A stretch of DNA of 64,000 nucleotides from Candidatus Latescibacterota bacterium. GTDB taxonomy: Bacteria > Latescibacterota > UBA2968 > UBA8231. Location: NCBI GenBank assembly GCA_965261395.1, contig OZ253462.1, positions 5,408,001 to 5,472,000 on the forward strand. Direction: 5' to 3'. Position 1 is the stretch's first letter; each line of letters starts with the position of its first letter. Under the pieces are notes generated by a model. The model did no database searches. It had not been told where the DNA came from and saw nothing but the letters and a program-made list of their open reading frames with translations. Below, in pieces: positions 28,725 to 64,000 of this stretch. Position numbers and translations under genes: made by a program.

Positions 28725-28735
28725 AGACCCTCGCT

Positions 28736-30817: not shown

Positions 30818-30832
30818 GGCATTCGACCTTGG

Positions 30833-32758: not shown

Positions 32759-32846
32759 TATCTTTTGCTTGGGCGCTGGGCCTTCGGCCGGTAAATTTGC
32801 CAAAAGCCACCACCCCAAACGACGAGGATGCCCGCCGCCGACCACC

Positions 32847-46399: not shown

Positions 46400-46808
46400 C
46401 CCCGGAGACCGCGTGCTCGATAGTTACGCGCTCTTAGCCTATCTGGAGAATGAAGTGGGTGCCCTTCAGGTTAAATCCCTGCTCAGCCAGGCAGAAACAG
46501 GCCCAAGCCGCCTGTGGATGTCCATCGTCAATTTGGGGGAAGTCCTCTATATCACTGAGCGTGAACGGGGCTTGGCCCACAGCCGCAATGTCCTAGCGGC
46601 TGTGGAGCAATTGCCGGTGGACATGGTCCTCGCCGACCGCGCCCATACTTTGTCTGCCGCCCATATCAAGGCCCGTTTCCCGCTCTCCTATGCCGATGCC
46701 TTCGCCGCCGCTCTGGCCCAAATCAAAGGTGTCCCTCTCGTGACCGGCGACGGAGAATTCAGCCGGGTCGAATCCCTCGTCGCCATCGAGTGGCTTCCTA
46801 GGCATTAG
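46392..46808 (+). CDS. vapC: VapC-family PIN toxin
   Basis: VLDSYALLA, NLGEV, LSYADAF, LVTGDGEF. Confidence 0.88.
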   Translation: MNDPGDRVLDSYALLAYLENEVGALQVKSLLSQAETGPSRLWMSIVNLGEVLYITERERGLAHSRNVLAAVEQLPVDMVLADRAHTLSAAHIKARFPLSYADAFAAALAQIKGVPLVTGDGEFSRVESLVAIEWLPRH

Positions 46809-46866
46809 TTCGTTGGCAGTTCCGTGGGGCAGTCAGTTTCGACAATTTGAATCCATAGGTGGCAAT

Positions 46867-49629
46867 GTGTCTAGGGCACTGATTGGCTGCGCTCTGTTTA
46901 TCGCAATTCTGGTGGTTGGATGCGCCCCTTCGGAACAGCCGCAGTCGGCCTCAGTCCAATCCCCTGCTCACCTCTCCCCAACGGGTATGGCTGATAACCA
47001 CCCCGTGTTATTCGCCGATGTAGCGGCCCAAGTCGGCCTAGATTTCGTCAATCTCTCGGGGAAGGACGACCCGAGGCTTTTGGTGGAAACCACGGGCACC
47101 GGCGCGGCCTTTCTCGACTACGATAATGATGGCTGGCTGGACCTCTTTTTCGTCAACGGCACCTTGCTAGACGCTGATCCGCCCCAAGCGACCAACCGCC
47201 TCTTCCACAACGAACCCGACCCCAGCGCCCAAAGACACTTCCGCGAAGTCACCCGTCAAAGCGGCTTGCTATCCAAGGGTTGGGGCATGGGTTGCGCTAC
47301 TGGTGATATCGACAACGATGGCGATACCGACCTATTAGCGACCTATTGGGGTCCCAATCTGTTGTATCGCAATAACGGCGACAGCACCTTTGACGAGATC
47401 GCCGCTCAAGCCGGAGTGGACCACCCCGGTTGGGGCACCAGTGCGGCTTTTGCCGATTTGGATGGCGACGGCTGGCTGGACCTCTACGTGACCAACTACC
47501 TCCACATCGACCTAGACCATCCCCCCAAGGACGGCCAACCGTGCCAATACAAGGGACTGTCCGTACCGTGCGGACCACAGGGGGTTCCAGCCCAAGCCGA
47601 TGTGCTCTACCGCAACAGAGGCGACGGCACCTTCGCCGATATGAGTGCAAGCAGCGGCCTAGACCAGTGGAGCTATGCCGGTTTGGGCGTTGCGTTTGGC
47701 GACTTCGATAACGACGGCGATCTGGATATTTACGTTGCCAACGACAGCGAGCCCAATATGCTTTTGCGCAACGACGGCGACTGGTACTTCAGCGAAATCG
47801 GCCAATCAGCCGGGGCAGCCTATAGCGAGAGCGGGCGGCCCCAGGCCGGCATGGGGGTCCACAGCGGCGATTATGACAACGATGGCGACCTCGATTTATT
47901 TGTGACCAATTTCTCCGAAGACTACAATACCCTGTACCAGAACCAATCCCCGACGACGACTGACTCCATGTGCTTTGTCGATGTCTCGCACGCCACCGGC
48001 TTGAGTGCCGGCGACCGGCCTTATCTCGGCTGGGCGACCGCTTTCTGGGATTACGACAACAATGGCTGGCTGGATCTATATGTAATTAACGGCCACGTTT
48101 ATCCACAGTTGGGAGTACATGCTTCGGGGTTGACCTATCGACAGCGCAACCTGCTCTATCAAAATCAGCATGGGCACTTTATAGAAGTGGGCCGCCGGGC
48201 CGGAGCGGCTTGGCAGCTCGAAGCGGCCAGTCGCGCGGCGGCCCAAGGTGACTACGACAACGATGGCGACCTCGATCTAGCCGTGGTAAATCACAACGCA
48301 GCACCGACCCTGTTGCGCAACGAGGGAGGAAACTTCAATAACTGGCTGGGTCTTGAACTGGTGGGTCATGTCAGCAACCGGGATGGTATCGGTGCTAGGA
48401 TCTGGATTTTCACCGCCGATCAGGTGCAAATGAGAGAAGTGTTTCGGGGTTATGGTTTTCAAAGCCAACACGATCCTCGTGTGTTGATAGGACTAGGTGC
48501 GAACCAAACCGTAGATCGAGTCGAAATACACTGGCCATCGGGCTCTCGTCAAACAATTGCTGCACCGCCGGTGCGGCGCTACCTCAAAGTACACGAGGGC
48601 CGCGATGGCTTCGAGCAAGGACCGGCTATCCCCCCTCCCCAGAGCGAATCTCTTATCGCTTCGGCACCAACGCCGAACTGGAGCGCCTCTGATTTCGCGG
48701 CCCTTGGGAACCAATACTATCAGGCCGGACACTACGGTGAAGCCCACGCCGCCTTCTATCGGGCCTTGGCCTTGGATCCGATCCATAAGCTGGCCAACCT
48801 GGGCATGGGCACATTGCTCTACGCCGGCATGGGTGCAGCCAATGAGGCGCTTTCGTATGTGGAAGAGGCGGCCCGCCGCGATTCATCCTCGGCGGAGAGC
48901 TTTCTCGTTCTCGGCAAAGTCTATCTGGACTTGGAGCGGCCCGCGTTAGCTGCCCGGGCTTTGGAGCGGGTCGCCAGACTGCGGGCACAGGATTGGGAGG
49001 CGTACTTCTGGCTGGGTCGGGCCTATGAGCAAAGCAATCGTTTGACCGAAGCCACAAATGCGTTTGGCAACGCCACAAGGTGGGCACCTTGGGAACCCGA
49101 GCCGCTGTTGGCACTGGCACAGCTCTACGCAAGGCAGGGCAATGAAAAAGCGGCTGCGGCAGCAAACAAACGGTTTGCACGGTATCGCCGACTCGCGCAA
49201 CGCGTCGAATCCCTACAGTCCCAGATTGACCGCGAGCCGCAAAACGAAAAGGCCTTTTTAGATCTGGGGCTGGCGTATATGGAGCAAGGCAGACTGGAGC
49301 GGGCTGCAGCGCACTATCAAGGGATGGTAACACGAGCGCCGCAAAGTGCGCTTGGTCTGTACGGCCTTGGCCTCCTCTGCTTGCGCCGCAATGACCCCCA
49401 AGGTGCCCTCGGCTATTTGCATAAAGCAGCGATCTATTCACCAGATGACGCCGAGATTCGCGGTGCCTTGGGCCAGGCATATTTCCAGCTAGAGCGCTAC
49501 GACGAAGCCGTGGTGGAGTGGGAACAAATCGCGGACACAACCCGCATCGGCCGCATGTTGCAGCAAGCGCGTGCTCGAATAGCATCCGCAGCGGAAGGTC
49601 TCCCGCCCGATGCCAAAAGGGGCCGCTAG
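46867..49629 (+). CDS. CRTAC1-like FG-GAP/VCBS repeat plus ASPIC/UnbV domain lipoprotein with C-terminal TPRs
   Basis: Lipobox VVGC. Repeated DYDNDGxLD motifs. SNRDGIGARI...IGLG...IHWPSG. TPR helices. Start approximate. Confidence 0.88.
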   Translation: MSRALIGCALFIAILVVGCAPSEQPQSASVQSPAHLSPTGMADNHPVLFADVAAQVGLDFVNLSGKDDPRLLVETTGTGAAFLDYDNDGWLDLFFVNGTLLDADPPQATNRLFHNEPDPSAQRHFREVTRQSGLLSKGWGMGCATGDIDNDGDTDLLATYWGPNLLYRNNGDSTFDEIAAQAGVDHPGWGTSAAFADLDGDGWLDLYVTNYLHIDLDHPPKDGQPCQYKGLSVPCGPQGVPAQADVLYRNRGDGTFADMSASSGLDQWSYAGLGVAFGDFDNDGDLDIYVANDSEPNMLLRNDGDWYFSEIGQSAGAAYSESGRPQAGMGVHSGDYDNDGDLDLFVTNFSEDYNTLYQNQSPTTTDSMCFVDVSHATGLSAGDRPYLGWATAFWDYDNNGWLDLYVINGHVYPQLGVHASGLTYRQRNLLYQNQHGHFIEVGRRAGAAWQLEAASRAAAQGDYDNDGDLDLAVVNHNAAPTLLRNEGGNFNNWLGLELVGHVSNRDGIGARIWIFTADQVQMREVFRGYGFQSQHDPRVLIGLGANQTVDRVEIHWPSGSRQTIAAPPVRRYLKVHEGRDGFEQGPAIPPPQSESLIASAPTPNWSASDFAALGNQYYQAGHYGEAHAAFYRALALDPIHKLANLGMGTLLYAGMGAANEALSYVEEAARRDSSSAESFLVLGKVYLDLERPALAARALERVARLRAQDWEAYFWLGRAYEQSNRLTEATNAFGNATRWAPWEPEPLLALAQLYARQGNEKAAAAANKRFARYRRLAQRVESLQSQIDREPQNEKAFLDLGLAYMEQGRLERAAAHYQGMVTRAPQSALGLYGLGLLCLRRNDPQGALGYLHKAAIYSPDDAEIRGALGQAYFQLERYDEAVVEWEQIADTTRIGRMLQQARARIASAAEGLPPDAKRGR

Positions 49630-49787: not shown

Positions 49788-51947
49788 ATGGCAGGGCTTC
49801 TGTCCTTTTTCGTTTTTGCTATGCTGCTCAGTGCTGCGCACGTATTTGGTGCAACCGAATACCGCCTGGGCGGGATTAACGGCAACGATTGGCAGGCGGC
49901 CCTGACCGCAGAGAGCTTCTTCCAGATCCGGGATGCCGACGGCCAGCCACTGCGACAAGTGCCGGTGGGGATCTCGCCCTTTGGGGCGGGGGCCGACACG
50001 CTGGTCGATTTCTCCGGCACAGCGATCCAGCCCCGTTTGATTGACTCCTCCGTCAATATCGCCCGGGCCGATGTAGACGCCAGCAAGACCCAGATCCCCC
50101 TGCCCTATATGCCCGGTTCGAGAGTCCTTACCAATAATTGCGGTCAGGCGCAATTACACGCCAGCACGATCAAGCTAATGCTGGACGCCAATCCCGCTAC
50201 GGCCACTTTTCGCACCTTTGTGCAACGGGCTGGGGGCCGGCCTGGCGATGGCTTTACTTGGAGGGGGGCCGTGGTCTTTGATTTTGGCGGCGCGATCCCC
50301 ATCAATCGCATCCGCTTCTATCCCCGCCTGAGTCAGCGCGAAGACCGCCAACTGATCGAATCCCTGCGGGAACCCGCTTCGGATATCGAGCGCTTTGGCG
50401 AAGACAGCTTCCTAGCCAATTTCCTCGCTTGGTACGAGATCCGCACCGGCGACAATTCGGTCGTCTTTGCCCCAGATCCATGCAGCGGCACCAGCACCTT
50501 CCTCTTTGACAGTTCCAAGCGCGATTTAGGCGCTGTGGCCACCAGCAAGCGACGCACGGTCTTGGGCGACTTGCGGTGGGTGCGGAGCGGCGATCCACTG
50601 CTGACGGTGCTGAAATCCACCCATGAAAACCTCGACCCCGTCGTCGATCTACGCTTTCCCTCCCGCTCGACCCGCTGGCTCACCCTGCGCGCCTTCCCCC
50701 TGCGCGACTATGAAGTCGCCGAATTCGAAATCTACGGCGAGGGCTACGTCCCCGAGACCACCTACCTCACCCCCATCCTCGACTTCGGCCAAGCCGTTAC
50801 CTGGGGCAAAATACGCTGGGAAGGAGACGTGCCCGACGGTACCCGCATCGAGATTCGCACCCGCACCGGCCACACCCCCGATCCACTGCTCTACTTCGCG
50901 CCCAATATCAACGACGACCTCGTATCCATCACCCACGCCGAACACGCCAAAATTGATATCGCCGCCCGCCTAGTCCCCACCTACGACGCCGACCACTGGA
51001 GCTTCTGGTCGTCGCCCTACGAGTTTGCCGCCGGCCAACGCAACCCCAACCAGCCAGCCAGCACTTGGCAGGACGGCATCCTGCTGTTGTCGCCCGGCCC
51101 TAGCCGCTACATCCAAATCGCCATCAAGCTCTTCGCCAACTTCAACGTGGCCCCTCGCCTCGACCAACTCACCCTGCAGTTGAGCGAAACCCTGTCGGCG
51201 CAGGCGCTCGTCGGCGAGATCTGGCCTATTGAGGTCGCCTCCTTTGAACCGACCCCCTTTACGTATGTGGTCTTGCCCACCCTCAGCGACGACAATGCCG
51301 GCTTTGACCGCTTGGAAATCCGCACCCATGTCCGGGCGCACGCCGTGCGCGCGGTGCGCATCGATGGGCAGCCGGTGGACCTAGATCAGTTCGTCCCCCA
51401 CCTGCTCGACGATCGCCTCATCGTGTCCTTCCCACCGCTGACCGGCAGCGCCGACAGCTTCAAGCAGGTCGAGGTCGACTTCGACGTGCCAGTGCTGCGC
51501 TTTGGCACCGAGTTCAGTGGTTGGGTATTCAGCAACACGGATCCCGACCAGATCCGGCAGCGCATCGATCCGGGCAACGCCACGTTCCGCTTTGCTGGCG
51601 ACCTGCTGGCGGTCAACACGCCGGTGGGGGGCGACTTGCTGGTGGATGTGCGAGTACCCCAAGTGTTCACTCCCAACGACGACGGGATCAACGAGACCTT
51701 GACTATCGGCTACAAGCTGCGCGAGGTCACCGCCGACCGACCGATACAGGTGCGCATCTACGACTTGGCCGGTCGGCTGGTGGCACACCTGCCCGTGTTC
51801 AACGCCCGCAGCGGGGTCTTTATCCAAGAGTGGGATGGCCGCGACGAGCAGGACGCCTTAGTCCAACCCGGCACCTATATCTACGAATTGGCGCTCGATT
51901 CCGAGGAGCAGCACACCCAACGCGGCGTCTTTGCCGTCGCCTATTGA
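49788..51947 (+). CDS. Secreted FlgD/CHU_C-tailed protein, tandem paralog 1
   Basis: Signal peptide. AEFEIYGEGY. SPGPSRYIQ. PQVFTPN.DGINE. WDGRD. Ends AVAY. Confidence 0.85.
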   Translation: MAGLLSFFVFAMLLSAAHVFGATEYRLGGINGNDWQAALTAESFFQIRDADGQPLRQVPVGISPFGAGADTLVDFSGTAIQPRLIDSSVNIARADVDASKTQIPLPYMPGSRVLTNNCGQAQLHASTIKLMLDANPATATFRTFVQRAGGRPGDGFTWRGAVVFDFGGAIPINRIRFYPRLSQREDRQLIESLREPASDIERFGEDSFLANFLAWYEIRTGDNSVVFAPDPCSGTSTFLFDSSKRDLGAVATSKRRTVLGDLRWVRSGDPLLTVLKSTHENLDPVVDLRFPSRSTRWLTLRAFPLRDYEVAEFEIYGEGYVPETTYLTPILDFGQAVTWGKIRWEGDVPDGTRIEIRTRTGHTPDPLLYFAPNINDDLVSITHAEHAKIDIAARLVPTYDADHWSFWSSPYEFAAGQRNPNQPASTWQDGILLLSPGPSRYIQIAIKLFANFNVAPRLDQLTLQLSETLSAQALVGEIWPIEVASFEPTPFTYVVLPTLSDDNAGFDRLEIRTHVRAHAVRAVRIDGQPVDLDQFVPHLLDDRLIVSFPPLTGSADSFKQVEVDFDVPVLRFGTEFSGWVFSNTDPDQIRQRIDPGNATFRFAGDLLAVNTPVGGDLLVDVRVPQVFTPNDDGINETLTIGYKLREVTADRPIQVRIYDLAGRLVAHLPVFNARSGVFIQEWDGRDEQDALVQPGTYIYELALDSEEQHTQRGVFAVAY

Positions 51948-52060
51948 AACTGGAAGCGTTGAAGAGATTTTGTTTCAAATCGCTTCAGCTTGGGTGTATA
52001 CTTAACCTTCGCAACCCTTGAACTGCACACTTGTATTGGTGACGCAGCAAGGAGGACGTT

Positions 52061-54226
52061 ATGGCAGGCATAGTGTTGCTGTGTTTTTGCGGCGTCTTGT
52101 TCGGTGCTGTGCCCGTGTTGGGGGGGACGGAATACCGTATAGGCGGGATCGATGGCAACCCCTGGCAGGCTATCCTAGGCGGGGAAAGTGCCTACCAAGC
52201 TTTTGCTGCTGACGGCGAAGTGGAGCGCCAAGTATCAGTGGGGGTTTCGCCCTTTGGGGCCGGGGCCGATACCTTGATCGACTTTTCCGGCACCACGATC
52301 CAACCCCGGCTCATTGACCCCAGCGTCAATATCGCCCGGGCCGATGTCGAAGCCGGCAGAACCACCATCCCCTTGCCCTATATCCCCGGCTCCAGAGTCC
52401 TCAGCACGGATCACTGTATTGCTTGGGGCAATTTTCAACCCTCGATCAAGCTAATGCTGGACGGCGATCCAACTACGGCCGCCTTTCGCACGTTTGTCCA
52501 GCGAGTCGGCTCGCCGCCGGGCGTGGGCTATACCTGGACCAATTCCGTGGTATTCGATTTTGGTGCTAGTGTGCCGATCAACCGCATCCGCTTCTTCCCC
52601 CGCCTGAGCCGGAGAGAGGATCACCAGTTAGTCGAGACTATGGACGCGCCCACGCCGGAGGTGGAGACCTTTGGCGAAGACAGCTTCCTGGCCAACTTCC
52701 TCGCTTGGTATGAAATCCGCACTGGCGATAACTCGGTCGTCTTTGCCCCGGACCCCTGCAGCGGTAGCGGCAGCCTCACCTGCAGCGTGTGTAGAGCGGG
52801 GATTTCCAGCGATGTAGCGACGAGCAAACGGCGCACCGTCTTAGGCGACTTGCGGTGGGTGCGCAATGGCGATCCGCTGCTGACGGTGCTGGAATCCACC
52901 CGCGAAAACCTCGACCCCATCGTCGATATGCGCTTTCCCACCCGCTCGACCCGCTGGCTCACGCTGCGCACCTTCCCCCTGCGCGACTATGAAATCGCCG
53001 AATTCGAAATCTACGGTGAAGGCTATGTCCCCGAGACCACCTACCTCACCCCCATCCTCGACTTCGGCCAAGCCGTTACCTGGGGCAAAATCCGCTGGGA
53101 AGGCGAAGTGCCCGCCGGCACCCGCATCGAGATTCGTACCCGCACCGGCCACACCCCCGACCCGCTGCTCTACTTCGCGCCCAATATCAACGACGAGCTT
53201 ATACCCATCACTCGCGCCCAATACGACGCAATCGACAGATCCGCTCAACTGCTGCCCACCTACGACGCCGACCACTGGAGCTTCTGGTCGTCGCCCTACG
53301 AGTTTGCCGCCGGCCAGCGCAACTCCGACCAGCCAGCTAGCGCCTGGCACGACGGGATCCTGCTGTTGTCGCCCGGCCCTAGCCGCTACATCCAAATCGC
53401 CATCAAGCTTTTTGCCGACTTCAACGTGGCACCCCGCCTCGACCAACTCACCTTGCAGTTGAGTGAAACCCTGTCGGCGCAGGCGCTCGTCGGCGAGATC
53501 TGGCCGATTGAGGTCGCCTCCTTTGAACCGATCCCCTTTACCTATGTGGTCTTGCCCACCCTCAGCGACGACAACGCCGGCTTCGACCGCTTGGAAATCC
53601 TCACCCATGTCCGGGTTCACGCGGTGCGCGCGGTGCGCATCGATGGCCAGCCAGTAGGCCTAGACCAGTTCGTCCCACAATTACTCGACGATCGCCTCAT
53701 CGTGTCCTTCCCACCGCTGACCGGCACCGCTGACAACTTCAAGCAGGTCGAGGTCGACTTCGACGTGCCGGTGTTGCGCTTTGGCACTGAGTTCAGCGGG
53801 TGGGTGTTCAGCAGCACCGATCCCGATCAGATCCGGCAGCGCATCGATCCGGGCAACGCCACGTTCCGCTTTGCTGGCGATTTGCTGGCGGTCAACACGC
53901 CGGTGGGCGGTGATCTGCTGGTGGATGTGCGAGTACCCCAGGTGTTCACTCCCAATGGCGACGGGATCAACGAGACCTTGCCTATCGCCTACAAGCTGCG
54001 CGAGGTCACCGCCGACCGAGCCGTGCAGGTGCGCATCTACGACTTGGCCGGTCGGCTGGTGGCGCACCTACCCGTGTTCAAGGCACGCAGCGGGGTCTTT
54101 GTCCAGCACTGGAACGGCCGCGACGAGCAGGACGCCTTGGTTCAGCCCGGCACCTATATCTACGAATTGACCCTTGATTCCGAGGAGCAATACACCCAAC
54201 AAGGCGTCTTTGCCGTCGCCTATTGA
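52061..54226 (+). CDS. Secreted FlgD/CHU_C-tailed protein, tandem paralog 2
   Basis: Near-identical framework to paralog 1. AAGGAGG RBS. Confidence 0.85.
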   Translation: MAGIVLLCFCGVLFGAVPVLGGTEYRIGGIDGNPWQAILGGESAYQAFAADGEVERQVSVGVSPFGAGADTLIDFSGTTIQPRLIDPSVNIARADVEAGRTTIPLPYIPGSRVLSTDHCIAWGNFQPSIKLMLDGDPTTAAFRTFVQRVGSPPGVGYTWTNSVVFDFGASVPINRIRFFPRLSRREDHQLVETMDAPTPEVETFGEDSFLANFLAWYEIRTGDNSVVFAPDPCSGSGSLTCSVCRAGISSDVATSKRRTVLGDLRWVRNGDPLLTVLESTRENLDPIVDMRFPTRSTRWLTLRTFPLRDYEIAEFEIYGEGYVPETTYLTPILDFGQAVTWGKIRWEGEVPAGTRIEIRTRTGHTPDPLLYFAPNINDELIPITRAQYDAIDRSAQLLPTYDADHWSFWSSPYEFAAGQRNSDQPASAWHDGILLLSPGPSRYIQIAIKLFADFNVAPRLDQLTLQLSETLSAQALVGEIWPIEVASFEPIPFTYVVLPTLSDDNAGFDRLEILTHVRVHAVRAVRIDGQPVGLDQFVPQLLDDRLIVSFPPLTGTADNFKQVEVDFDVPVLRFGTEFSGWVFSSTDPDQIRQRIDPGNATFRFAGDLLAVNTPVGGDLLVDVRVPQVFTPNGDGINETLPIAYKLREVTADRAVQVRIYDLAGRLVAHLPVFKARSGVFVQHWNGRDEQDALVQPGTYIYELTLDSEEQYTQQGVFAVAY

Positions 54227-54337
54227 AACTGGAAGCGTTGAAGAGATTTTGTTTCTAAACGATTAGCTGGGGTGTATACTTAATCTTCGTAACCCTTGAA
54301 TTGCACACTTGTATTGTGAAGCAGCAAGGAGGACGTT

Positions 54338-56488
54338 ATGGCAGGCATCGTGTTGCTGTGTTTTTGCAGCGTCTTGCTGGGTGCTGTGCCTGTGTTGGGG
54401 GGGACGGAATACCGCCTGGGCGGGCCCGATGGCAACCCTTGGCAGGCCGTCCTGGCCGGGGAAAGTGCCTACCAAGCTTTTGCTGCTGACGGCCAAGTTG
54501 AGCGTCAAGTATCGGTGGGGATTGCGCCCTTTGGCACGGGAGCCGATACGCTGGTTGATTTCTCCGGCACAGCCATCCAGCCCCGTTTGATTGACTCCTC
54601 CGTCAATATCGCCCGGGCCGATGTGGACGCCAGCAAGACCCAGATCCCCCTGCCCTATATGCCCGGTTCGAGAGTCCTTACCAATAGTTGCGGTCAGGCG
54701 CAAGGACATGCCAATACGATCAAGCTAATGCTGGACGCCAATCCCGCTACGGCCACCTTCCGCACCTTTGTGCAACGGGTCGGAGGCCGGCCTGGGGATG
54801 GCTTTTCTTGGAGGGGGGCTGTAGTCTTTGATTTTGGCGGCGCGATCCCCATCAATCGCATCCGCTTCTATCCCCGCCTGAGTCAGCGCGAAGACCGCCA
54901 ACTGATCGAATCCCTGCGGGAACCCGCTTCGGATATCGAGCGCTTTGGCGAAGACAGCTTCCTAGCCAATTTCCTCGCTTGGTACGAGATCCGCACCGGC
55001 GATAACTCGGTCGTCTTTGCCCCAGATCCATGCAGCGGCACTGGCCGTAACAGCGCCTACATCTACAACGACGTTGTGGCGACGAGTAAGCGACGCACCG
55101 TCTTGGGCGACTTGCGGTGGGTGCGGAGCGGCGATCCGCTGCTGACGGTGTTGGAATCCACCCACGAAAACCTCGACCCCGTCGTCGATCTACGCTTCCC
55201 CGTCCGCTCGGTCCGCTGGCTCACCCTGCGCGCCTTCCCCCTGCGCGACTATGAAGTCGCCGAATTCGAAATCTACGGCGACGGCTATGTCCCCGAGACG
55301 ACCTACCTCACCCCTATCCTCGACTTCGGACAAGCCGTCACCTGGGGTAAAATACGCTGGGAAGGCGACATGCCCGACGGCACCCGCATCGAGATTCGCA
55401 CCCGCACCGGCCACACCCCCGACCCGCTGCTCTACTTTGCACCCAATATCAACGACGACCTCGTACCCATCACCCACGCCGAACAAGCCAAAATCGATAT
55501 CGCCGCTCAACTGCTGCCCGTCTACGATGCCGACCACTGGAGCTTCTGGTCGTCGCCCTACGACTTTGCCGCCGGACAGCGCAACTCCGACCAGCCGGCC
55601 AACGCCTGGCAGGACGGAATGCTGCTTTTGTCGCCCGGTCCCAGCCGCTATATCCAAATCGCCATCAAGCTCTTTGCCAACTTCAACGTGGCACCTCGCA
55701 TCGACCAACTCACCTTGCAGTTGAGCGAAACCCTGTCGGCGCAGGCGCTCGTCGGTGAGATCTGGCCGATTGAGGTCGCCTCCTTTGAACCCACTCCCTT
55801 TACGTATGTGGTTTTGCCCACCCTCAGCGACGACAACGCCGGCTTTGACCGCTTGGAAATCTTCACTCACGTCCAAGCGCACGCGGTGCGCTCGGTGCGC
55901 ATCGACGGCCAGCCCGTCGACCTAAACCAGTTCGTCCCCCACCTGCTCGACGATCGCCTCATCGTGTCCTTTCCGCCGCTGACCGGCAGCGCCGACAGCT
56001 TCAAGCAGGTCGAGGTCGACTTCGACGTGCCAGTGCTGCGCTTTGGCACCGAGTTCAGCGGGTGGGTGTTCAGCAGCACGGATCCCGATCAGATCCGGCA
56101 GCGCATCGATCCAGGCAACGCCACGTTCCGCTTTGCCGGCGACTTGCTGGCCGTCAGCACGCCGGTAGGGGGCGACCTATTGGTGGATGTGCAGGTGCCT
56201 CAGATGTTCACGCCCAATGGCGATAGGATCAACGAGACTTTGACCATCACCTACAAGCTGCGCGAGGTCACGGCTGATCGACCGGTGCAGGTGCGCATCT
56301 ACGACTTGGCGGGTCGGCTGGTGGCGCACCTACCCGTGTCCAACGCCCGCAGCGGGGTCTTTGTCCAGGAGTGGAACGGCCGCGACGAGCAGGACGCCTT
56401 GGTTCAGCCCGGCACCTATATCTACGAATTGACCCTTGATTCCGAAGAGCAATACACCCAACAAGGCGTCTTTGCCGTCGCCTATTGA
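54338..56488 (+). CDS. Secreted FlgD/CHU_C-tailed protein, tandem paralog 3
   Basis: Near-identical framework to paralogs 1 and 2. AAGGAGG RBS. Confidence 0.85.
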   Translation: MAGIVLLCFCSVLLGAVPVLGGTEYRLGGPDGNPWQAVLAGESAYQAFAADGQVERQVSVGIAPFGTGADTLVDFSGTAIQPRLIDSSVNIARADVDASKTQIPLPYMPGSRVLTNSCGQAQGHANTIKLMLDANPATATFRTFVQRVGGRPGDGFSWRGAVVFDFGGAIPINRIRFYPRLSQREDRQLIESLREPASDIERFGEDSFLANFLAWYEIRTGDNSVVFAPDPCSGTGRNSAYIYNDVVATSKRRTVLGDLRWVRSGDPLLTVLESTHENLDPVVDLRFPVRSVRWLTLRAFPLRDYEVAEFEIYGDGYVPETTYLTPILDFGQAVTWGKIRWEGDMPDGTRIEIRTRTGHTPDPLLYFAPNINDDLVPITHAEQAKIDIAAQLLPVYDADHWSFWSSPYDFAAGQRNSDQPANAWQDGMLLLSPGPSRYIQIAIKLFANFNVAPRIDQLTLQLSETLSAQALVGEIWPIEVASFEPTPFTYVVLPTLSDDNAGFDRLEIFTHVQAHAVRSVRIDGQPVDLNQFVPHLLDDRLIVSFPPLTGSADSFKQVEVDFDVPVLRFGTEFSGWVFSSTDPDQIRQRIDPGNATFRFAGDLLAVSTPVGGDLLVDVQVPQMFTPNGDRINETLTITYKLREVTADRPVQVRIYDLAGRLVAHLPVSNARSGVFVQEWNGRDEQDALVQPGTYIYELTLDSEEQYTQQGVFAVAY

Positions 56489-56600
56489 AACTGGAAGCGT
56501 GGAAGAAATTTTGTTTCTAAACGATTAGCTGGGGTGTATACTTAATCTTCGTAACCCTTGAATTGCACACTTGTATTGGTGAAGCAGCAAGGAGGACGTT

Positions 56601-58757
56601 ATGGCAGGCATCGTGTTGCTGTGTTTTTGCGGCGTCTTGTTGGGTGCTGTGCCCGTGTTGGGAGGAACGGAATACCGTCTAGGCGGGATCGGTGGCAACC
56701 CTTGGCAGGTCCTCCTGGCCGGGGAAAGCGCCTACCAAGCCTTTGCTGCTGACGGCGAAGTGGAGCGCCAAGTATCCGTGGGGATTGCGCCCTTGGGGGC
56801 CGGGGCCGATACCCTGATCGACTTTTCTGGCACCTCAATTCAGCCTCGGCTCATTGACCCCAGCGTCAATATCGCCCGGGCCGATGTCGAAGCCGGTAGG
56901 GCGACCATCCCCTTGCCCTATATCCCCGGCTCTAGGGTACTCAACAACAATAGTTGCTGGTCCTGGGGCAATATGCAACCCTCGATCAAGCTAATGCTGG
57001 ACGGCGATCCGACCACGGCCGCCTTTCGCACCTTTGTCCAACGGGTCGGCTCGCCGCCGGGCGTGGGCTATGGCTGGGGCAATTCCGTGATATTCGATTT
57101 TGGAACTGGTGTGCCGATCAACCGCATCCGCTTCTATCCCCGCCTGAGCCGCCGGGAAGACCGCCCGTTAATCGAGACCATGCGCCCTCCCACCCCCGCC
57201 GTCGAAACCTTTGGCCAAGACAGCTTCCTCGACAATTTCCTCGCCTGGTACGAGATCCGCAGCGGCGATAATTCGATTGTCTTTGCCAATGACTCATGCA
57301 ATGCCAACGACTACGGCAGCGGCGGAGATCGCAATATCAACGTTGTGGCCACCAGCAAGCGGCGCACAGTCCTAGGCGACTTGACCTGGGTGCGCAATGG
57401 CGACCCCAGACTGACGGTGCTAAAAACCACCCGCGAAAACCTCGACCCGGTCGTCGATCTGCGCTTCCCCGTCCGCTCGACCCGCTGGCTCACCCTGCGC
57501 GCCTTCCCCCTGCGCGACTATGAAGTCGCCGAATTCGAAATCTACGGCGACGGCTACGTCCAAGAGGCCACCTACCTCACCCCCATCCTCGACTTCGGAC
57601 AAGCCGTCACCTGGGGCAAAATACGCTGGGAAGGTGAGGTGCCCGACGGCACCCGCATCGAAATCCGCACCCGCACCGGCCACACCCCCGATCCACTGCT
57701 CTACTTCGCCCCCAATACCAACGACGACCTCGTATCCATCACCCGCGCCCAATACGACGCAATCGATATCGCTGTTCAATTACTTCCCATCTACGATGCC
57801 GACCACTGGAGCTTCTGGTCGTCGCCCTACGAGTTTGCCGCCGGTCAACGCAATCCCAATCAGCCGGCCAGCGACTGGCACGACGGGATCCTGCTGTTGT
57901 CGCCCGGCCCCAGCCGCTACATCCAAATAGCCATCAAGCTCTTCGCCGACTTCCATGTGGCACCCCGCCTCGACCAACTCACCCTGCAGTTGAGTGAAAC
58001 CCTGTCGGCGCAGGCGCTCGTCGGCGAGATCTGGCCGATTGAGGTCGCCTCCTTTGAACCCACCCCCTTTACCTATGTGGTTCTGCCCACCCTCAGCGAC
58101 GACAACGCCGGCTTCGACCGCTTGGAAATCCTCACCCACGTCCGGGCGCACGGCGTGCGCGCGGTGCGCATCGATGGCCAGCCAGTAGGCCTAGACCAGT
58201 TCGTCCCGCAATTACTCGACGATCGCCTGATCGTGTCCTTCCCACCGCTGACCGGCACCGCCGACAACTTCAAGCAGGTCGAGGTCGACTTCGACGTGCC
58301 GGTGTTGCGCTTTGGCACTGAGTTCAGCGGGTGGGTGTTCAGCAGCACCGATCCCGACCAGATCCGGCAGCGCATCGATCCAGGCAACGCCACGTTCCGC
58401 TTTGCCGGCGACTTGCTGGCCGTCAACACGCCGGTGGGGGGCGACTTGCTGGTAGATGTGGAGGTGCCTGAGGTGTTCACCCCCAACGGCGACGGGATCA
58501 ACGAGACCTTGCCCATCGCCTACAAACTGCGCGAAGTCACGGCTGACCGGCCGGTGCAGGTGCGCATCTACGACTTGGCGGGTCGGCTGGTGGCGCACCT
58601 ACCCGTGTTCAACGCCCGCAGCGGGGTCTTCATCCAAGAGTGGGATGGCCGCGACGAGCAGGACGCCTTGGTTCAGCCCGGCACCTATATCTACGAATTG
58701 ACCCTTGATTCCGAGGAGCAATACACCCAACAAGGCGTCTTTGCCGTCGCTTACTAG
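56601..58757 (+). CDS. Secreted FlgD/CHU_C-tailed protein, tandem paralog 4
   Basis: Near-identical framework to paralogs 1-3. AAGGAGG RBS. Confidence 0.85.
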   Translation: MAGIVLLCFCGVLLGAVPVLGGTEYRLGGIGGNPWQVLLAGESAYQAFAADGEVERQVSVGIAPLGAGADTLIDFSGTSIQPRLIDPSVNIARADVEAGRATIPLPYIPGSRVLNNNSCWSWGNMQPSIKLMLDGDPTTAAFRTFVQRVGSPPGVGYGWGNSVIFDFGTGVPINRIRFYPRLSRREDRPLIETMRPPTPAVETFGQDSFLDNFLAWYEIRSGDNSIVFANDSCNANDYGSGGDRNINVVATSKRRTVLGDLTWVRNGDPRLTVLKTTRENLDPVVDLRFPVRSTRWLTLRAFPLRDYEVAEFEIYGDGYVQEATYLTPILDFGQAVTWGKIRWEGEVPDGTRIEIRTRTGHTPDPLLYFAPNTNDDLVSITRAQYDAIDIAVQLLPIYDADHWSFWSSPYEFAAGQRNPNQPASDWHDGILLLSPGPSRYIQIAIKLFADFHVAPRLDQLTLQLSETLSAQALVGEIWPIEVASFEPTPFTYVVLPTLSDDNAGFDRLEILTHVRAHGVRAVRIDGQPVGLDQFVPQLLDDRLIVSFPPLTGTADNFKQVEVDFDVPVLRFGTEFSGWVFSSTDPDQIRQRIDPGNATFRFAGDLLAVNTPVGGDLLVDVEVPEVFTPNGDGINETLPIAYKLREVTADRPVQVRIYDLAGRLVAHLPVFNARSGVFIQEWDGRDEQDALVQPGTYIYELTLDSEEQYTQQGVFAVAY

Positions 58758-58848: not shown

Positions 58849-60858
58849 CTATCGCCCCTGCAATCGCGCCAACGCGCGCTGGGCTTTGGCGTACTCAGGG
58901 GCCAAGCTCAGGGTCAGGCGGTAGAACTCGGCCGCCTTGTCGAATCGGCCCAAGTCGTGGTAGGCCGCCCCCAAATTAAAGGCGATCAAGTGATTGCCGG
59001 GCGCGGCTTTTAACGCTATGGCAAAATAATCAACCGCCCGCTCCAACGCCCCTTGCCGGACCTCGATCAAGCCCAGCTCATTGGCCGCCTGCGCCCGCAC
59101 CTTTTCCCCGCTTAGCGCCGCTTCAAAGGCTTCCTGGGTCCGCTCTGTTGCCCCCATTCTCTTATAAACCCTCCCCAGCGCCAGAAAAACCGCCGCGTCG
59201 GCCTTTTTTGCCAAAACTCGGCGGTAGTGCTCCACCGCTTGCTCGTATCGTCCCGTGGCCCGGTACAGAGCCGCCAAGTTGAGGTGCAATCCCCGATCGT
59301 CGGGCGCTTGCGCCAAGGCCTGCCGATAAACTGCCTCGGCTTCGTCGTAGCGCCTTAGCGCCACCAGCGCCGCACCCAGATTATGGTGGGCTCGCAGGTA
59401 ATTTGGATCGAGCTGCACTGCGGTCCTAAAGGAGCGCGCCGCAATCGCGTACTGCCCCCGTTGGGCTTGGACGCGCCCCAGATCAAAGTGTACTTCCGCG
59501 TCGGCCAAAGAGTCGGCCGGCCGCAGGCCAGCGTTGGCAGCTATCCCCAGCAAAACGACAAAAGCCAAGCCGATCCCCAAGGGACGCCACTGCCGGTCCT
59601 GCCCCTGCTGCACCAGCCAGACTAGGGCGTACCCGGCAAATAGTAGCAGCAGCGGCACTAGGGGCAGGCGATAGCGGCCGGTGATAAAAAAGAGCAGCAG
59701 CGAGGCGCTGTACGCGCCGGTGCAGAGCAGCAGTAAACCCGCCTGAGGCCGGTGTCGCCAAGCCAGCACCATGCCCACAGCGGCTAAAGGTCCCAGCAGT
59801 CCAAAAGGAAAGGCGAAGTGATGGATTTTCCACAGCAAGACGCTCATCAGCCAAGAATAGATGCGGGCGAAGTACACGTCTTGGTTGCGCTTGATTTCCT
59901 CTCCTCGCGCCAACAAGAACGCCTTGTACCCCAACAACCGCACAAAATCCCCGGGCGCACCGGCGATCCAGTCGCTAGCTTGCCGGTAGAAGTAGGCCGA
60001 GCGCTCGGCGTACCCCACTTGACCCGCGGCCAGCGGCTGCTCCATTAAGGCCTCCCATTCCGGCCCTGGGCGGATCCCTACCAGACGGTTGTAATCGGGA
60101 TGGTTGCCCAAGTAGAAATTCACTCCGCCGTTCCAGGACAAGGGGATGAACTCGCCGCTGACCGCCCAATTCCTCGCCGTCACTACGCCAACCACTGAGC
60201 AGGCGGTCGCCGCAAAAAGCAGGCACCAGACCAGCTTGCTCCGCGCTACTCGCTCAGCACTCCTCCAGTACCATAGACAGGCGCAAGGAGCCAACAGGGC
60301 CGCATTGGGCACGGCGACTATGGCCAAGCCTTGGACGAGGCCCGAGACTAGAGCCTGTCCCCATCCCCGGCCGGGCTGGAGCAGGACAAAGAGCAACAGG
60401 AGATTGAGGAAAACGGCCAGCGCAGTGGGCAGCAGCTCGCCGGCAAAATAGATGGAAGGTCCGTATAAACAGGCCATGATTCCAGCGAGGAGACCAACTC
60501 GGGTGCCAAACACCTGCCGGCCGATGCCAAAGACCAAGGCACAAGAGGCCGCTGCCAAGAGGAACTGGACAAGTCGGGGCGTCCAGAACAAGTCGCCGGA
60601 AACGGCGTAGATCAAGGCGAGAAAATAGGGGTATAGAGGCGGCTGCCAAAAGGGCTTGTCCCCCACCCAGGACACCTCGGCGAGCTGCCGCGCCTGAGCC
60701 ACATAGGAGTGGGCATCCACTACCGGTGCCGAGAAAAAGGGATTGTCTTGACTGTGCCCCAAATAGACCAGACGCACGACCAACGCCAAAAGAAAAAGAC
60801 CACCTGCGACCTTCAATTCGCGTCGGCTCATCGAGGCGGCCGAGGGCGGGTTATTCAT
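58849..60858 (-). CDS. GT-C (PMT/ArnT, GT39-like) membrane glycosyltransferase with C-terminal TPRs
   Basis: VDAHSY, FWQPPLYPYFLA, multiple TM helices, RYRLP, then HFDLG/HHNLG TPRs. Confidence 0.8.
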   Translation of the reverse strand: MNNPPSAASMSRRELKVAGGLFLLALVVRLVYLGHSQDNPFFSAPVVDAHSYVAQARQLAEVSWVGDKPFWQPPLYPYFLALIYAVSGDLFWTPRLVQFLLAAASCALVFGIGRQVFGTRVGLLAGIMACLYGPSIYFAGELLPTALAVFLNLLLLFVLLQPGRGWGQALVSGLVQGLAIVAVPNAALLAPCACLWYWRSAERVARSKLVWCLLFAATACSVVGVVTARNWAVSGEFIPLSWNGGVNFYLGNHPDYNRLVGIRPGPEWEALMEQPLAAGQVGYAERSAYFYRQASDWIAGAPGDFVRLLGYKAFLLARGEEIKRNQDVYFARIYSWLMSVLLWKIHHFAFPFGLLGPLAAVGMVLAWRHRPQAGLLLLCTGAYSASLLLFFITGRYRLPLVPLLLLFAGYALVWLVQQGQDRQWRPLGIGLAFVVLLGIAANAGLRPADSLADAEVHFDLGRVQAQRGQYAIAARSFRTAVQLDPNYLRAHHNLGAALVALRRYDEAEAVYRQALAQAPDDRGLHLNLAALYRATGRYEQAVEHYRRVLAKKADAAVFLALGRVYKRMGATERTQEAFEAALSGEKVRAQAANELGLIEVRQGALERAVDYFAIALKAAPGNHLIAFNLGAAYHDLGRFDKAAEFYRLTLSLAPEYAKAQRALARLQGR

Positions 60859-62677
60859 ACTGCACACCCCGTCCTTGCTCGATTAGCAAATTCCGCTCGG
60901 CGGGTAGATCTCGAAATACCTGCGCGGTCCCATCCGGCCATTGGACTTCCAGCAGGTCAATGCGCTCGTAGCCGCCCAAGCCGAAGTGGAGCCGTCGATC
61001 ACCAGCCGATAAATAGCTGCTCCCACTTCTAACTAAGCGGCGCTGCTCCAACGAACCCGCCACCAGCCGCACTTCGGCTCCCACCGCATCGCGGTTGGCC
61101 GTTGTAGCCACCAGCTTGACTGCGGTCCAATTGCGCCCGTTGCCGTGGTGATTGCGCGCCAGCTTGGCCGGCCCCCCGCAATTGGTCACCAGCAGGTCCA
61201 GATCGCCGTCCCCGTCCCAGTCGCCCCGGGCCAGTCCCCGACTTATTTGCTCTTGCGCGAACCAACTCCCCGCACTGTCCGCCACATCGGTGAAGCGGCA
61301 GGAGCTGTCGTTGCGAAATAGCTGATGCTCTTGGGCATAGCGCACCCCGGGTTGCAGGATATGAACGCGGTCCAAGACATGGCCGTTGGCCACGTACAGA
61401 TCTTGGTCGCCGTCGTGGTCGTAATCGAGAAACGCAGTGCCAAAGCCCAAGTAGAGCCAACTCGGCCGGCCCAAGCCCGCAGCCGTGGTCACATCTTTGA
61501 AATAGGTTCCTTCATTGCGATAGAGCGTATTGGTTTCGCGCGAGAAATTGGTGACGAACAGATCCCAGTCGCCATCGCGGTCGCAATCGCCGATGGCCAC
61601 TCCCATACCGGCCTCGGCTTGGCCGCGCACATTGTAGGCCACCCCGGCTTGTAGGGCTACATCGCGGAAGGTGCCATCGCCGGCGTTTTGGTAGAGGAAG
61701 TTGGCCACCCCGTCGTTGGCCACGTATAGATCCTGGTAGCCGTCCTCGTTCCAGTCCCAAGCCACCACGCCCAACCCCTTGCCATTGGGATTGGCAATGC
61801 CAGCGGCAATGGATACATCGGCAAAAGTACCGTCCCCCTCGTTGTGGTAGAGCACATCGGGCACGCCCCCGTACTCGCTGGGCGCGCAGTACGAGCGCGT
61901 ATCTTCCCCAATGGCGCGCAAGCCCGCGTCGTCAGTGCGGATGAAACCACCGCAGATTTTGTTGGTCGCTGGGGTAAAATCGAGATAATTGACCACATAC
62001 AGATCGAGCGCGCCATCGTTGTCGCGGTCGAAAAAGGCGGCGCTGGTGCTCCATTGGGGAGCCTCGACGCCACGACTGCGGACAAAGGTGGCGTCCCCTC
62101 GGTTGTGATAGAGGGCGTTAGGGCCGTAGTTGGTCGCGTACAGATCCTGGTCGCCGTCGTTGTCGGCATCGGCCACGGCCACGCCCATGCCATAGCCCGG
62201 GTCCGCGGCCCCACCGGCATTGGGCACGGCGACAAAAGTACCTTTCCCTTCGTTGCGGTAGAGCGCATTACCCCTTGGTTCCACCTCAGCCACGGGGGCC
62301 AATTCGACCGCATAGTCGGCCGGATCTGCGGAGCGGCCCTCGGCGCTAGGGGTCAATGGGGCCACCCAATAGAGGCCCTCTTCTCTGCGCGCCAAGTTGA
62401 TCGGCCGGGTGTCCAAGCCCCTTAGATCGAAGCCGTTGACCAGATAAATATCTAAGTCGCCGTCCTCGTCAAAGTCGGCCAAGGCCCCGCCCGCGCCCAT
62501 GGTCTCAATGAGAAAGTACTGCCCGGCGGCACCGTTTTCGTGGACAAAGGAAAGGCCCGCTTGGTCGGTGGCATCGGTGAAGTACACCGCCGGCGACTCG
62601 CTTTGGCAGCCCATGGACCATCCGAGCGCCAAGATAGCCGTCAATCGTTGAATATGGCGGCCCACCCTTCCTCTCAA
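60851..62677 (-). CDS. CRTAC1-family FG-GAP plus ASPIC/UnbV protein (probable lipoprotein)
   Basis: SMGC. DxDxDGDxD repeats. NRDAVGAEV...HFGLG...VQWPDG. Confidence 0.88.
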   Translation of the reverse strand: MRGRVGRHIQRLTAILALGWSMGCQSESPAVYFTDATDQAGLSFVHENGAAGQYFLIETMGAGGALADFDEDGDLDIYLVNGFDLRGLDTRPINLARREEGLYWVAPLTPSAEGRSADPADYAVELAPVAEVEPRGNALYRNEGKGTFVAVPNAGGAADPGYGMGVAVADADNDGDQDLYATNYGPNALYHNRGDATFVRSRGVEAPQWSTSAAFFDRDNDGALDLYVVNYLDFTPATNKICGGFIRTDDAGLRAIGEDTRSYCAPSEYGGVPDVLYHNEGDGTFADVSIAAGIANPNGKGLGVVAWDWNEDGYQDLYVANDGVANFLYQNAGDGTFRDVALQAGVAYNVRGQAEAGMGVAIGDCDRDGDWDLFVTNFSRETNTLYRNEGTYFKDVTTAAGLGRPSWLYLGFGTAFLDYDHDGDQDLYVANGHVLDRVHILQPGVRYAQEHQLFRNDSSCRFTDVADSAGSWFAQEQISRGLARGDWDGDGDLDLLVTNCGGPAKLARNHHGNGRNWTAVKLVATTANRDAVGAEVRLVAGSLEQRRLVRSGSSYLSAGDRRLHFGLGGYERIDLLEVQWPDGTAQVFRDLPAERNLLIEQGRGVQYE

Positions 62678-64000
62678 TACACCACGTGAACGAGCTGCAT
62701 CATCTGGGTCCGCACATTCCTGCGTGCATCTGCATCCACCTCCACCCGCAAGATATACGTCCCCGGCGGCACCCGCTCGCCCGCGTCATCCACCCCCTCC
62801 CAAGCCACCTCGTATTGCCCACTCGCCCGCTCTCGCACCTGTTCCAGCGCCCAAATGCGACGACCCGCCAGATCGTGCACCGAGACGATCACCGCCTGAG
62901 TTCCATCCAAGCGCAGCACTTTAAAGCCAATCAGCGCTGCGTCATTAACTCCATCCCCATTGGGCGTCACGGCTTTTGGGACCAGCGCCAGCTCCGCCAA
63001 ACCCACCTGTCCCGAGGGCACCAGCACCCGGAGGACGCCGCTTTCCACTTCGGCCACGGTCTCTTGATCGGCTTCGACCAATTGCCAAGTTCCCGAATCA
63101 TCGCGGTTGCCCACCCGTCCCGCAAAGGAAACGCCGTGGCCAAATAGCGCGGTCAATACATCGACCGCTACTACCTCGTCGCGACCAACCGCGTCGGGCA
63201 GGCGCACCCACAGCGAGTCGGCCGCGGTCTTAAGCACCTCCACCACATCTAGGCCCAGCACTGCGCCGCCTCCGGCAGCCACTTCGGCCGCAGAGCCAAG
63301 GCGCACCTCCCGCAGCGACAGCGGCGTCCCTCCCGAACTGACCAATAACACCTCGTCAATGCCTGGATCACCCACCCGTCGCACCGGCCGCACGAAAAAG
63401 GTCAGCGGCGTGTCCTCCCCCGGATGTTCCACCTGCACTGGGAATACCTCGCCCAAGGCTCTGCCCACCCACGGTTGGGAAAACGACACCTCCAAGCGCC
63501 GCAATAGCACGGAATTTTGCGGGTCGTCACTGCTCAATCGCACCTGGGCCTTGAGGAAGCGGCGCGGCGACGGCGAAGTGATGACTTGGCCCGACCGCAG
63601 GTGCGGTTTGCTCCAAGGGCTCCAAGTTTCCTCATCGACGACCAGCACATTGAGCGAATCCCCTTTAAGCGCGGCAATCAATTTATGGTACGCTTTTTTG
63701 TCCACTTCAGCGCCGTCGCTCCGGTAATACGTGGTGTTAACTTTGGTCCGATCGCCGGTTCGGGTGGCCACCTCAATGCGCGTACCGGGCGGGATGTCGG
63801 CCTCCCACTGAAGCGTGGTCAAATTCCTGCTACTGCTCAAGTCGATCAACGGCGATTCCAACACCACCTCCGGCTGATAGCCCTCGCCGTAGGCCTGTAG
63901 TTCGGACCAGCCGGCTCTGTTCCCCCCCCTGCCCACCAGATAGTCGAAGGCAATGTAGCGGACCTTCTGCAGCTCAAAGCGCACCTCTTGGAACCGAGGC
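62674..64000 (-). CDS. FlgD/CHU_C-tailed family protein, 5'-truncated by the window edge
   Basis: SELQAYGEGY. ATRTG. SPSPRRF. TPNGDGVND. WEGVD...PGTY. Ends HVVY. Confidence 0.8.
   Translation of the reverse strand, partial: PRFQEVRFELQKVRYIAFDYLVGRGGNRAGWSELQAYGEGYQPEVVLESPLIDLSSSRNLTTLQWEADIPPGTRIEVATRTGDRTKVNTTYYRSDGAEVDKKAYHKLIAALKGDSLNVLVVDEETWSPWSKPHLRSGQVITSPSPRRFLKAQVRLSSDDPQNSVLLRRLEVSFSQPWVGRALGEVFPVQVEHPGEDTPLTFFVRPVRRVGDPGIDEVLLVSSGGTPLSLREVRLGSAAEVAAGGGAVLGLDVVEVLKTAADSLWVRLPDAVGRDEVVAVDVLTALFGHGVSFAGRVGNRDDSGTWQLVEADQETVAEVESGVLRVLVPSGQVGLAELALVPKAVTPNGDGVNDAALIGFKVLRLDGTQAVIVSVHDLAGRRIWALEQVRERASGQYEVAWEGVDDAGERVPPGTYILRVEVDADARRNVRTQMMQLVHVVY

Follow-up and report, generated by a model that had tools for sequence, protein, structure and literature searches.

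The stretch of DNA considered here, a window of 64,000 nucleotides from a Candidatus Latescibacterota bacterium (positions 5,408,001 to 5,472,000 of contig OZ253462.1, assembly GCA_965261395.1), contains four adjacent genes whose products share most of their sequence and differ sharply in three short segments near the N terminus. Is such an array a hypervariable system in which binding loops are continually diversified, or is it an ordinary set of paralogs, each with loops of its own? A first-pass annotation, made from this one sequence, described the loops as hypervariable and likened them to the complementarity-determining regions of antibodies. That description does not survive comparison with related genomes, where the loop sets prove to be discrete and recur almost unchanged in orthologs. 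We consider it probable that the array is a tandem repertoire of secreted, lectin-like proteins, each combining a discoidin-type head and stable, selected loops with a body that is maintained by gene conversion.

The array consists of four full-length open reading frames (ORFs) arranged head to tail on the + strand, as the first-pass annotation had reported: copy 1 (49788..51947, 719 aa), copy 2 (52061..54226, 721 aa), copy 3 (54338..56488, 716 aa), and copy 4 (56601..58757, 718 aa). Their heads are assigned below to types T1, T2a, T3, and T4, respectively. Each protein starts with a signal-peptide-like leader, judged by eye, which in copy 1 occupies residues 1-22 ahead of a conserved TEYR (49788..49853) and in copies 2, 3, and 4 lies at 52061-52126, 54338-54403, and 56601-56666. 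Loop 1, which holds an invariant Cys118, covers residues 115-126 of copy 1 (50130..50165; equivalents in copies 2, 3, and 4 at 52403-52441, 54680-54715, and 56943-56981), and loop 2 covers residues 148-161 (50229..50270; 52505-52546, 54779-54820, and 57045-57086). Loop 3 lies immediately 3' of an invariant Cys232, at residues 233-249 of copy 1 (50484..50534; 52760-52813, 55034-55075, and 57300-57344), and is followed by a block, VATSKRRTVLGDL, that is invariant in all four copies (50535..50573; 52814-52852, 55076-55114, and 57345-57383). The discoidin (F5/8 type C)-like core assigned with Foldseek and hhalign spans approximately residues 125-322 of copy 1 (50160..50753) and contains two large insertions, while the C-terminus of the protein is a CHU_C/FlgD-Ig beta-sandwich (residues 622-719, 51651..51944; 53930-54223, 56192-56485, and 58461-58754 in the other copies). 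The twelve loop peptides quoted in the first-pass annotation, together with VATSKRRTVLGDL, were each located exactly as quoted.

The three spacers between the copies (51948..52060, which is 113 nt long, 54227-54337, and 56489-56600) measure 111-113 nt and are nearly identical, and each closes with AAGGAGG ahead of the ATG. The DNA upstream of copy 1 is unrelated to these spacers, and copy 1 has its own 5' region as well as its own signal peptide. A scan of the array for promoters and terminators returned a number of sites that did not exceed that in shuffled sequences.

Relative to copy 1, the proteins encoded by copies 2, 3, and 4 are 81%, 89%, and 81% identical, with a mean column identity of 89%, and a constant framework with paralog-specific loops is evident as first described. 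Variable columns make up 44 of the 52 loop positions against 147 of the 674 elsewhere (Fisher odds ratio 19.7, p = 6e-20), and loop 3 differs in length in every copy (17, 18, 14, and 15 residues in copies 1 through 4), with an extra CxxC inside loop 3 of copy 2. The claim that differences cluster in the N-terminal loops is therefore correct as far as it goes, but they are not confined there. Sliding-window identity over codons 61-232 separates the copies into two deep classes, copies 1 and 3 versus copies 2 and 4, with a between-class nucleotide identity of 0.62-0.86 and a framework dS (synonymous substitutions per site) of about 0.8; within the classes, identity is 0.89-1.00 for copies 1 and 3 and 0.74-0.90 for copies 2 and 4. 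Downstream of about codon 286, every pair of copies is approximately 0.76-1.0 identical. The first 60 codons of copy 1, including the signal peptide, are unlike those of the other copies, and copy 3 is a chimera that resembles copies 2 and 4 in codons 1-60 and copy 1 in codons 61-232.

The pair formed by copies 1 and 3 had been singled out for its nearly identical flanking DNA and its non-synonymous changes inside loop 1, and it offers the clearest view of how the loops differ. In 30-codon windows around the loops the two genes are 0.96-1.00 identical, and codons 97-232 contain only 14 differing codons, 12 of which fall in codons 118-127 and 141-163. Of these differences, nine are synonymous and five change the amino acid; three of the five are in loop 1, where such changes had been claimed. 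Silent changes therefore cluster in the same patches as well. A pattern of this kind is what would be expected if gene conversion had swept the framework while sparing older, selected patches, rather than if mutation had been targeted to the loops. Among the four window copies themselves, loop dS is saturated (up to more than 2, or undefined), leaving pairwise dN/dS (the ratio of non-synonymous to synonymous rates) indecisive on selection, and we therefore replaced these comparisons with comparisons within head types across genomes.

Relatives of the four proteins are numerous. Among 8000 candidates scored, 414 matched at E <= 1e-3, with at least 120 listed, and relatives are encoded by 346 stretches of reference genomes, from which 61 loci were retained. 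Metagenome-assembled genomes titled Candidatus Latescibacterota account for almost all of these, some being titled Gemmatimonadota instead, and members of the family carry the source name "hypothetical protein." Typing of the loops in 93 distinct close homologs (>= 60% identity), drawn from these loci and from the protein search, gave six discrete head types: T1, T2a, T3, and T4, which are those of copies 1, 2, 3, and 4, and two further types, T2b and T5, that are absent from the window. For every copy in the window there are orthologs whose loops match exactly or almost exactly, and such orthologs were found in about ten related Latescibacterota genomes. More distant lineages carry further loop sets, including forms of loop 3 that differ in length and sequence. 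Loop sets that are discrete and stably inherited in this way indicate an ordinary repertoire of paralogs and not a hypervariable, antibody-like system.

Substitution patterns within the types agree with this. The first-pass annotation had named a loop dN/dS well below 1 as evidence against its own proposal, and that is what was found: in the 41 genes for which DNA was used, pooled by type and summed over pairs that are not independent, dN/dS is 0.07 for loop 1, 0.11 for loop 2, and 0.31 for loop 3, compared with 0.12 for the head framework and 0.10 for the body. The protein sequence of loop 1 is identical across 8 of 8 T2a, 8 of 8 T2b, and 9 of 9 T4 orthologs despite a proportion of synonymous differences (pS) of 0.16-0.25. 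The only value above 1 is that of loop 3 in T4, at 1.67 (22 synonymous and 122 non-synonymous changes summed over 36 non-independent pairs), which hints at diversification in that one loop on the basis of few changes.

Programmed hypervariation, in which a diversity-generating retroelement or a cassette system of antigenic or phase variation would continually diversify the loops, could draw on the T4 value, on the strong concentration of variation in three short segments, and on the fact that copies 1 and 3 differ over codons 97-232 almost only in patches at the loops. We nonetheless regard it as very improbable. The first-pass annotation had already seen no reverse transcriptase or recombinase nearby, and scanning 48 window ORFs with Pfam revealed neither, with no reverse transcriptase (RVT) domain among them. 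No template-like repeat of a loop occurs outside the array; repeats of at least 40 nt that involve the array all lie inside it, apart from two weak inverted matches (73-74%) to a distant paralog gene. Each of the four copies is an intact ORF with a ribosome-binding site rather than a silent cassette, the loop sets are conserved over about ten genomes, and loops 1 and 2 are constrained within types. The synonymous changes that share patches with the non-synonymous ones in copies 1 and 3 likewise fit an old divergence spared by conversion.

If the loops are old and stable, the similarity of the remainder of the proteins has to be accounted for. Trees were built from the head (codons 61-232 without loop 3) and from the body (codons 300-719), and the number of changes of type or of genome of origin on each was compared with 200 shuffles. 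The head tree requires 9 type changes (shuffle mean 25.0, minimum 20) and 31 genome changes (shuffle mean 31.2). The body tree requires 20 type changes (shuffle mean 25.2, minimum 20) and 21 changes of genome of origin, the latter fewer than in any shuffle (minimum 27, mean 31.1). Thus, the C-terminal 420 codons group by genome and the head groups by type. In approximately unbiased (AU) tests, whose groups were chosen after a first FastTree tree, a T1 + T3 clade was rejected for the body (p = 0.0036); for the head framework, T2a and T2b clades were rejected (p = 1e-4 and 3e-5), as the 2a and 2b genes pair genome by genome. In 23 of 40 genes the body has its nearest neighbor within the same genome, in a gene of another type, and in the other 17 the nearest neighbor is a gene of the same type from elsewhere. 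For the loops, the nearest neighbor is of the same type elsewhere in 39 of 40 cases, a result that is partly circular, the types having been set by loop-3 motifs. On the evidence of these trees the common body reflects gene conversion among the paralogs.

Differences between sister types suggest why the loops have not been erased with the rest. Between T2a and T2b (8 + 8 genes, 697 codons), the differences fixed between types are non-synonymous and synonymous in a ratio of 5:0, against 282:582 for polymorphic differences (p = 0.004). The corresponding ratios are 31:10 fixed and 246:490 polymorphic for T1 versus T3 (p = 1e-7), and 27:17 and 241:524 for T4 versus T5 (p = 1e-4); this comparison handles sites singly and is crude. 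The sites fixed between T2a and T2b lie at codons 100, 120 (two sites), 242, and 247, with four of the five in loops 1 and 3; that codon 242 is fixed follows from how the types were defined. These comparisons support selection as the force that keeps the loop differences between types.

The alternative is that the loops are unconstrained surface segments that drifted apart after duplication and have no functional meaning, with conversion failing across stretches rich in indels. Indels block conversion tracts in homologous recombination, and loop 3 is both rich in indels and modeled as disordered (pLDDT 25-28); across the wider family the loops also show high entropy and insertions. Neutral drift of this sort is improbable, to our minds, if less so than programmed hypervariation. 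Constraint within types is as strong on loops 1 and 2 as on the framework (0.07 and 0.11 versus 0.12), no non-synonymous difference separates the loop-1 sequences of T2a, T2b, or T4 orthologs even at their synonymous divergence, and non-synonymous changes are over-represented among the differences fixed between sister types. In addition, indels in loops 1 and 2 are few or absent within a class, and these loops nevertheless carry type-specific residues inside a converted framework.

What the loops might do depends on the fold that carries them. A discoidin or galactose-binding-like scaffold had been proposed from the sequence, and structure-based and profile-profile comparisons agree. A model of the head (residues 22-322, from an alignment of 78 sequences) was obtained with a mean predicted local distance difference test (pLDDT) score of 65.8 and a predicted template modeling (pTM) score of 0.65. 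Foldseek searches with this model gave 14 matches at E <= 1e-3, and the domains recovered are of the CBM32, discoidin, and galactose-binding kinds; these include the structures 1eut (E 3.3e-4), 4lqr, 4a41, and 2w1u and domain 1 of galactose oxidase, and the matches to 4zxe, 4zy9, and 4zz5 reach template modeling (TM) scores of 0.45-0.61 on single-domain targets. A profile search with the head found 193 representatives at E <= 1e-3 among 1.84 billion. Among 49 long, distant relatives that were scanned, F5_F8_type_C was detected at E <= 1e-3 in 11 and above the cut-off in two, P0190 (30.8 bits) and P0215 (43.2 bits). Alignment of the head profile to P0215 with hhalign gave a probability of 98.2% (E 5e-14) and covered the PF00754 region, and it places two insertions in the discoidin core, one a helical stretch at about residues 181-212 and the other comprising loop 3, VATSKRRT, and about 25 further residues. 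The same comparison with an 817-aa paralog in the window aligned the expected region with a weak match (7% probability, E 0.0048). In a language-model protein atlas, copy 1 falls only in clusters of its own family, some of which have F5_F8_type_C on 14-64% of their members. The full-length AlphaFold2 model (pLDDT 67.8) is all-beta, with loop 3 below 50 (25-28); a Foldseek search with the whole protein was uninformative, returning only generic tandem Ig, FN3, and macroglobulin matches at a TM score of about 0.1. Taken together, the profile and model comparisons support assignment of the head as a diverged discoidin (F5/8 type C, CBM32-like) domain.

All 98 aligned relatives retain Cys118 at the base of loop 1 and Cys232 at the base of loop 3. 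Beyond the leader, copies 1, 3, and 4 have no other cysteine, and copy 2 adds two inside loop 3. A disulfide between Cys118 and Cys232 would fit this conservation. The VATSKRRTVLGDL block, which follows the most variable loop, contains three basic residues, and together with loop 3 it forms an insertion that is absent from relatives of 53% identity and from P0215. One guess is that it might serve as a processing site or as a contact for an anionic ligand.

Pfam recognizes only the C-terminus of the four proteins. CHU_C (PF13585), found in all four copies, scores 45.9-48 bits and FlgD_ig 27.2-28.9 bits, the cut-off being 27 for each. Together with the hydrophobic leader, the CHU_C match upholds the earlier designation of these proteins as secreted, and a Sec-type leader combined with a CHU_C/FlgD-Ig domain suggests export to the cell surface. 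One relative has been named "gliding motility-associated-like protein" by the Joint Genome Institute (JGI). Proteins exported by type IX secretion with a type B C-terminal domain (PF13585/TIGR04131) share with the array proteins a leader and a C-terminal CHU_C beta-sandwich of 95 residues. The array proteins differ from such cargo in scoring below the TIGR04131 cut-off and in matching FlgD-Ig about as well. A literature search found nothing on type IX secretion in Latescibacterota.

Several observations weigh against the reading of the array as a conversion-maintained repertoire of secreted, lectin-like proteins. On the side of fold, none of the four copies matches F5_F8_type_C (PF00754) at E <= 0.1, only one of the 78 head sequences matches it, weakly (E 0.0019), and profile searches against PDB sequences recovered FlgD alone for the C-terminus, with no significant match to the head; the models, full-length as well as head, are of only moderate confidence, with loop 3 below a pLDDT of 50. 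Pfam also detected no catalytic domain in any of the four proteins, unlike classical CBM32 proteins. As for export, the NCBIfam model TIGR04131 (type B sorting domain) scored 29.1-30.6 bits in the three of four copies scanned, under its cut-off of 35, and no type IX secretion core gene or PorP/SprF-like partner was seen among the scanned window ORFs. The evolutionary comparisons have weaknesses as well, as the types were defined by loop-3 motifs after the sequences had been inspected and the loop-3 alignment among the four window copies is uncertain; the non-independent pairs behind the dN/dS sums, the AU groups taken from an earlier tree, the definition of codon 242, and the crudeness of the fixed-versus-polymorphic test belong under the same heading.

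The content of the array varies between genomes. At the syntenic site, related genomes have one to four copies: T1-T5-T3-T4 (L001), T1-T2a-T4 (L002, L005), T1-T4 (L003, L004, L006, L009, L017), or T1 alone (L008). Several of the related assemblies are single contigs of 6-7 Mb with syntenic arrays, which argues against an assembly artefact here. The same genomes contain a second locus at which T2a-T2b or T5-T2b stands behind a distant paralog of 705 aa (L010-L016, L050), and types T2a and T5 are found in the main array of some genomes and at the second locus of others (L001, L002, L005, L010-L016, L050). Genes from the two loci have bodies that group by genome, which suggests that heads, or entire genes, move from one locus to the other.

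We propose that each protein consists of a Sec-type leader, a discoidin/CBM32-like head, two unassigned beta-rich middle domains, and the CHU_C/FlgD-Ig sandwich, a domain of the sort that directs proteins to type IX secretion. Domains of the discoidin/CBM32 fold bind ligands through their apical loops, and the three head loops could likewise form a ligand-binding apex, most likely for a glycan, with each head type carrying its own specificity. The genome would hold a germline repertoire of discrete specificities, T1, T2a, T3, and T4 in this case and T2b and T5 in its relatives. Gene conversion among tandem and dispersed paralogs would homogenize the bodies within a genome, along with part of the head framework; selection would prevent the loop differences from being erased, and unequal exchange would alter both the copy number (one to four) and the set of head types in a given strain.

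The genes around the array are also conserved in part. Upstream lies a gene for an FG-GAP/UnbV_ASPIC/TPR protein of 938 aa (46813..49629, +) and downstream one for a PMT_2 (membrane glycosyltransferase-like) and TPR protein of 672 aa (58849..60867, -), both in conserved synteny. The latter is followed by an FG-GAP/UnbV_ASPIC protein of 608 aa (60851..62677, -), whose gene also flanks the array at the syntenic site of related genomes, and by a distant paralog with FlgD_ig/CHU_C (62674..63999, -) that is 28% identical over 419 aa and runs off the end of the window. Three further distant paralogs, of 817 aa (with a Pfam F5_F8_type_C match), 693 aa, and 705 aa, are encoded at 26403..32950 (-). In most of the 61 loci (most of L010-L061) a neighborhood recurs that comprises a protein of about 880 aa, a PMT_2/TPR membrane protein, a distant paralog of 705 aa, and a family member of 706 aa, and FG-GAP/ASPIC genes are frequently present as well; it appears twice in the window (23744-26380 and 58849-60867). 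The 880-aa protein has no family in the language-model protein atlas, and its nearest named cluster there is a TonB-receptor-like barrel (DUF6029, score 0.89), which offers a lead to its nature only.

This recurrence, in most of the loci and twice in the window, is the basis for a further alternative, in which the proteins are components of an envelope system: the heads would bind a glycan or polymer of the cell itself, or the proteins would be substrates of the PMT-like glycosyltransferase, and the paralogs would be structural isoforms. A shared neighborhood by itself shows no interaction, however, and differences between strains in how many heads they carry, and of which type, would be more typical of proteins that face the environment. 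An envelope role is compatible with a repertoire of lectin-like proteins; as an explanation in place of it, we judge it unlikely. A broader version of the repertoire reading would join these threads, and we put it forward tentatively, as a possibility we think somewhat doubtful. It envisages a slow germline "head swapping" in which genome-wide conversion keeps a common stalk and moves or preserves heads between the two loci, giving strain-specific sets of one to four or more specificities, all inside a conserved, uncharacterized envelope system of Latescibacterota and Gemmatimonadota that would include the 880-aa protein, the PMT-like glycosyltransferase with TPR, and the FG-GAP/ASPIC proteins.

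Other features of the window may be recorded briefly. The second cluster of the family in the window (22975-32950, -, with 19715-22978, +) contains the three distant paralogs and two proteins without a family, of 878 aa and 251 aa, and adjoins a DUF6785/DUF6784 protein and a TPR protein; its 705-aa paralog has a CHU_C domain and is 26% identical to copy 1 (E 2e-36). Immediately upstream of the FG-GAP/TPR neighbor of the array, at 46046-46808 (+), a MazE/AbrB-type antitoxin gene overlaps a PIN-domain gene, a pair that looks like a VapBC-like toxin-antitoxin system, and an ORF without an assigned family (44057-45091) contains, at 44709-44834, a tandem repeat of 18 nt that is translated as about five SNPPDT units. 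The region at 10684-19614 encodes a helicase of 1794 aa that matches the PADLOC model DruE1 (E 9e-106) and has DEAD, Helicase_C, and MrfA Zn-binding domains; it adjoins two Schlafen/AlbA_2 + HATPase_c_4 proteins, and the region may be a defense island. The only transposase in the window is IS630-like (1100-2115), about 48 kb from the array and split over two frames, with a helix-turn-helix (HTH) part at 1100-1597 and DDE_3 at 1594-2115; a Bor-like lipoprotein gene lies at 709-1095 (-).

The array can be compared with several described systems. With CBM32 and F5/8 type C domains, such as those of the Micromonospora sialidase (1eut), of Clostridium perfringens (4lqr, 4a41, 2w1u), and the chitosan-binding modules of Paenibacillus (4zxe, 4zz5), the heads share a beta-sandwich, predicted here, and variable loops between the strands. 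In contrast to these, the array proteins miss the Pfam threshold, carry two large insertions in the core, and are without a catalytic module. Like the variable proteins of diversity-generating retroelements, they concentrate variation in short stretches of a putative ligand-binding domain whose scaffold is constant, but they differ in fold, in the lack of a reverse transcriptase or template repeat, and in the stability of their loops across genomes. The pilE/pilS and vls cassette systems differ from the array in that all of its copies are complete ORFs with a ribosome-binding site and loops conserved across genomes.

The evolutionary mode itself has known parallels by analogy. Among paralogous surface-protein families, the FLO adhesins of yeast (PMC3512402) and the GOT1 paralogs (PMC3728101) are reported as cases in which ectopic recombination or gene conversion has left divergent islands. 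As in both, the body of the array genes is homogenized within a genome, divergent islands appear to persist under selection, and chimeric copies such as copy 3 occur. Unlike in FLO and GOT1, the organism and the fold are different, and the islands are the three loops of a discoidin-like head. Our literature search found no paper on this family and nothing on discoidin under Latescibacter*, and the passages of PMC12993501 that were searched contain no mention of discoidin, a secretion system, FG-GAP, or terms beginning with adhesi-.

In conclusion, an array that seems hypervariable when seen in one genome resolves into stable paralog types once related genomes are compared. The family is nameless and without a characterized member, and it is present in multiple copies in an uncultured phylum. 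The combination of a conversion-homogenized body with selected loops points to the residues that should set ligand specificity, and the four fixed amino-acid positions between T2a and T2b would provide a compact set of natural variants of a discoidin-type lectin head.

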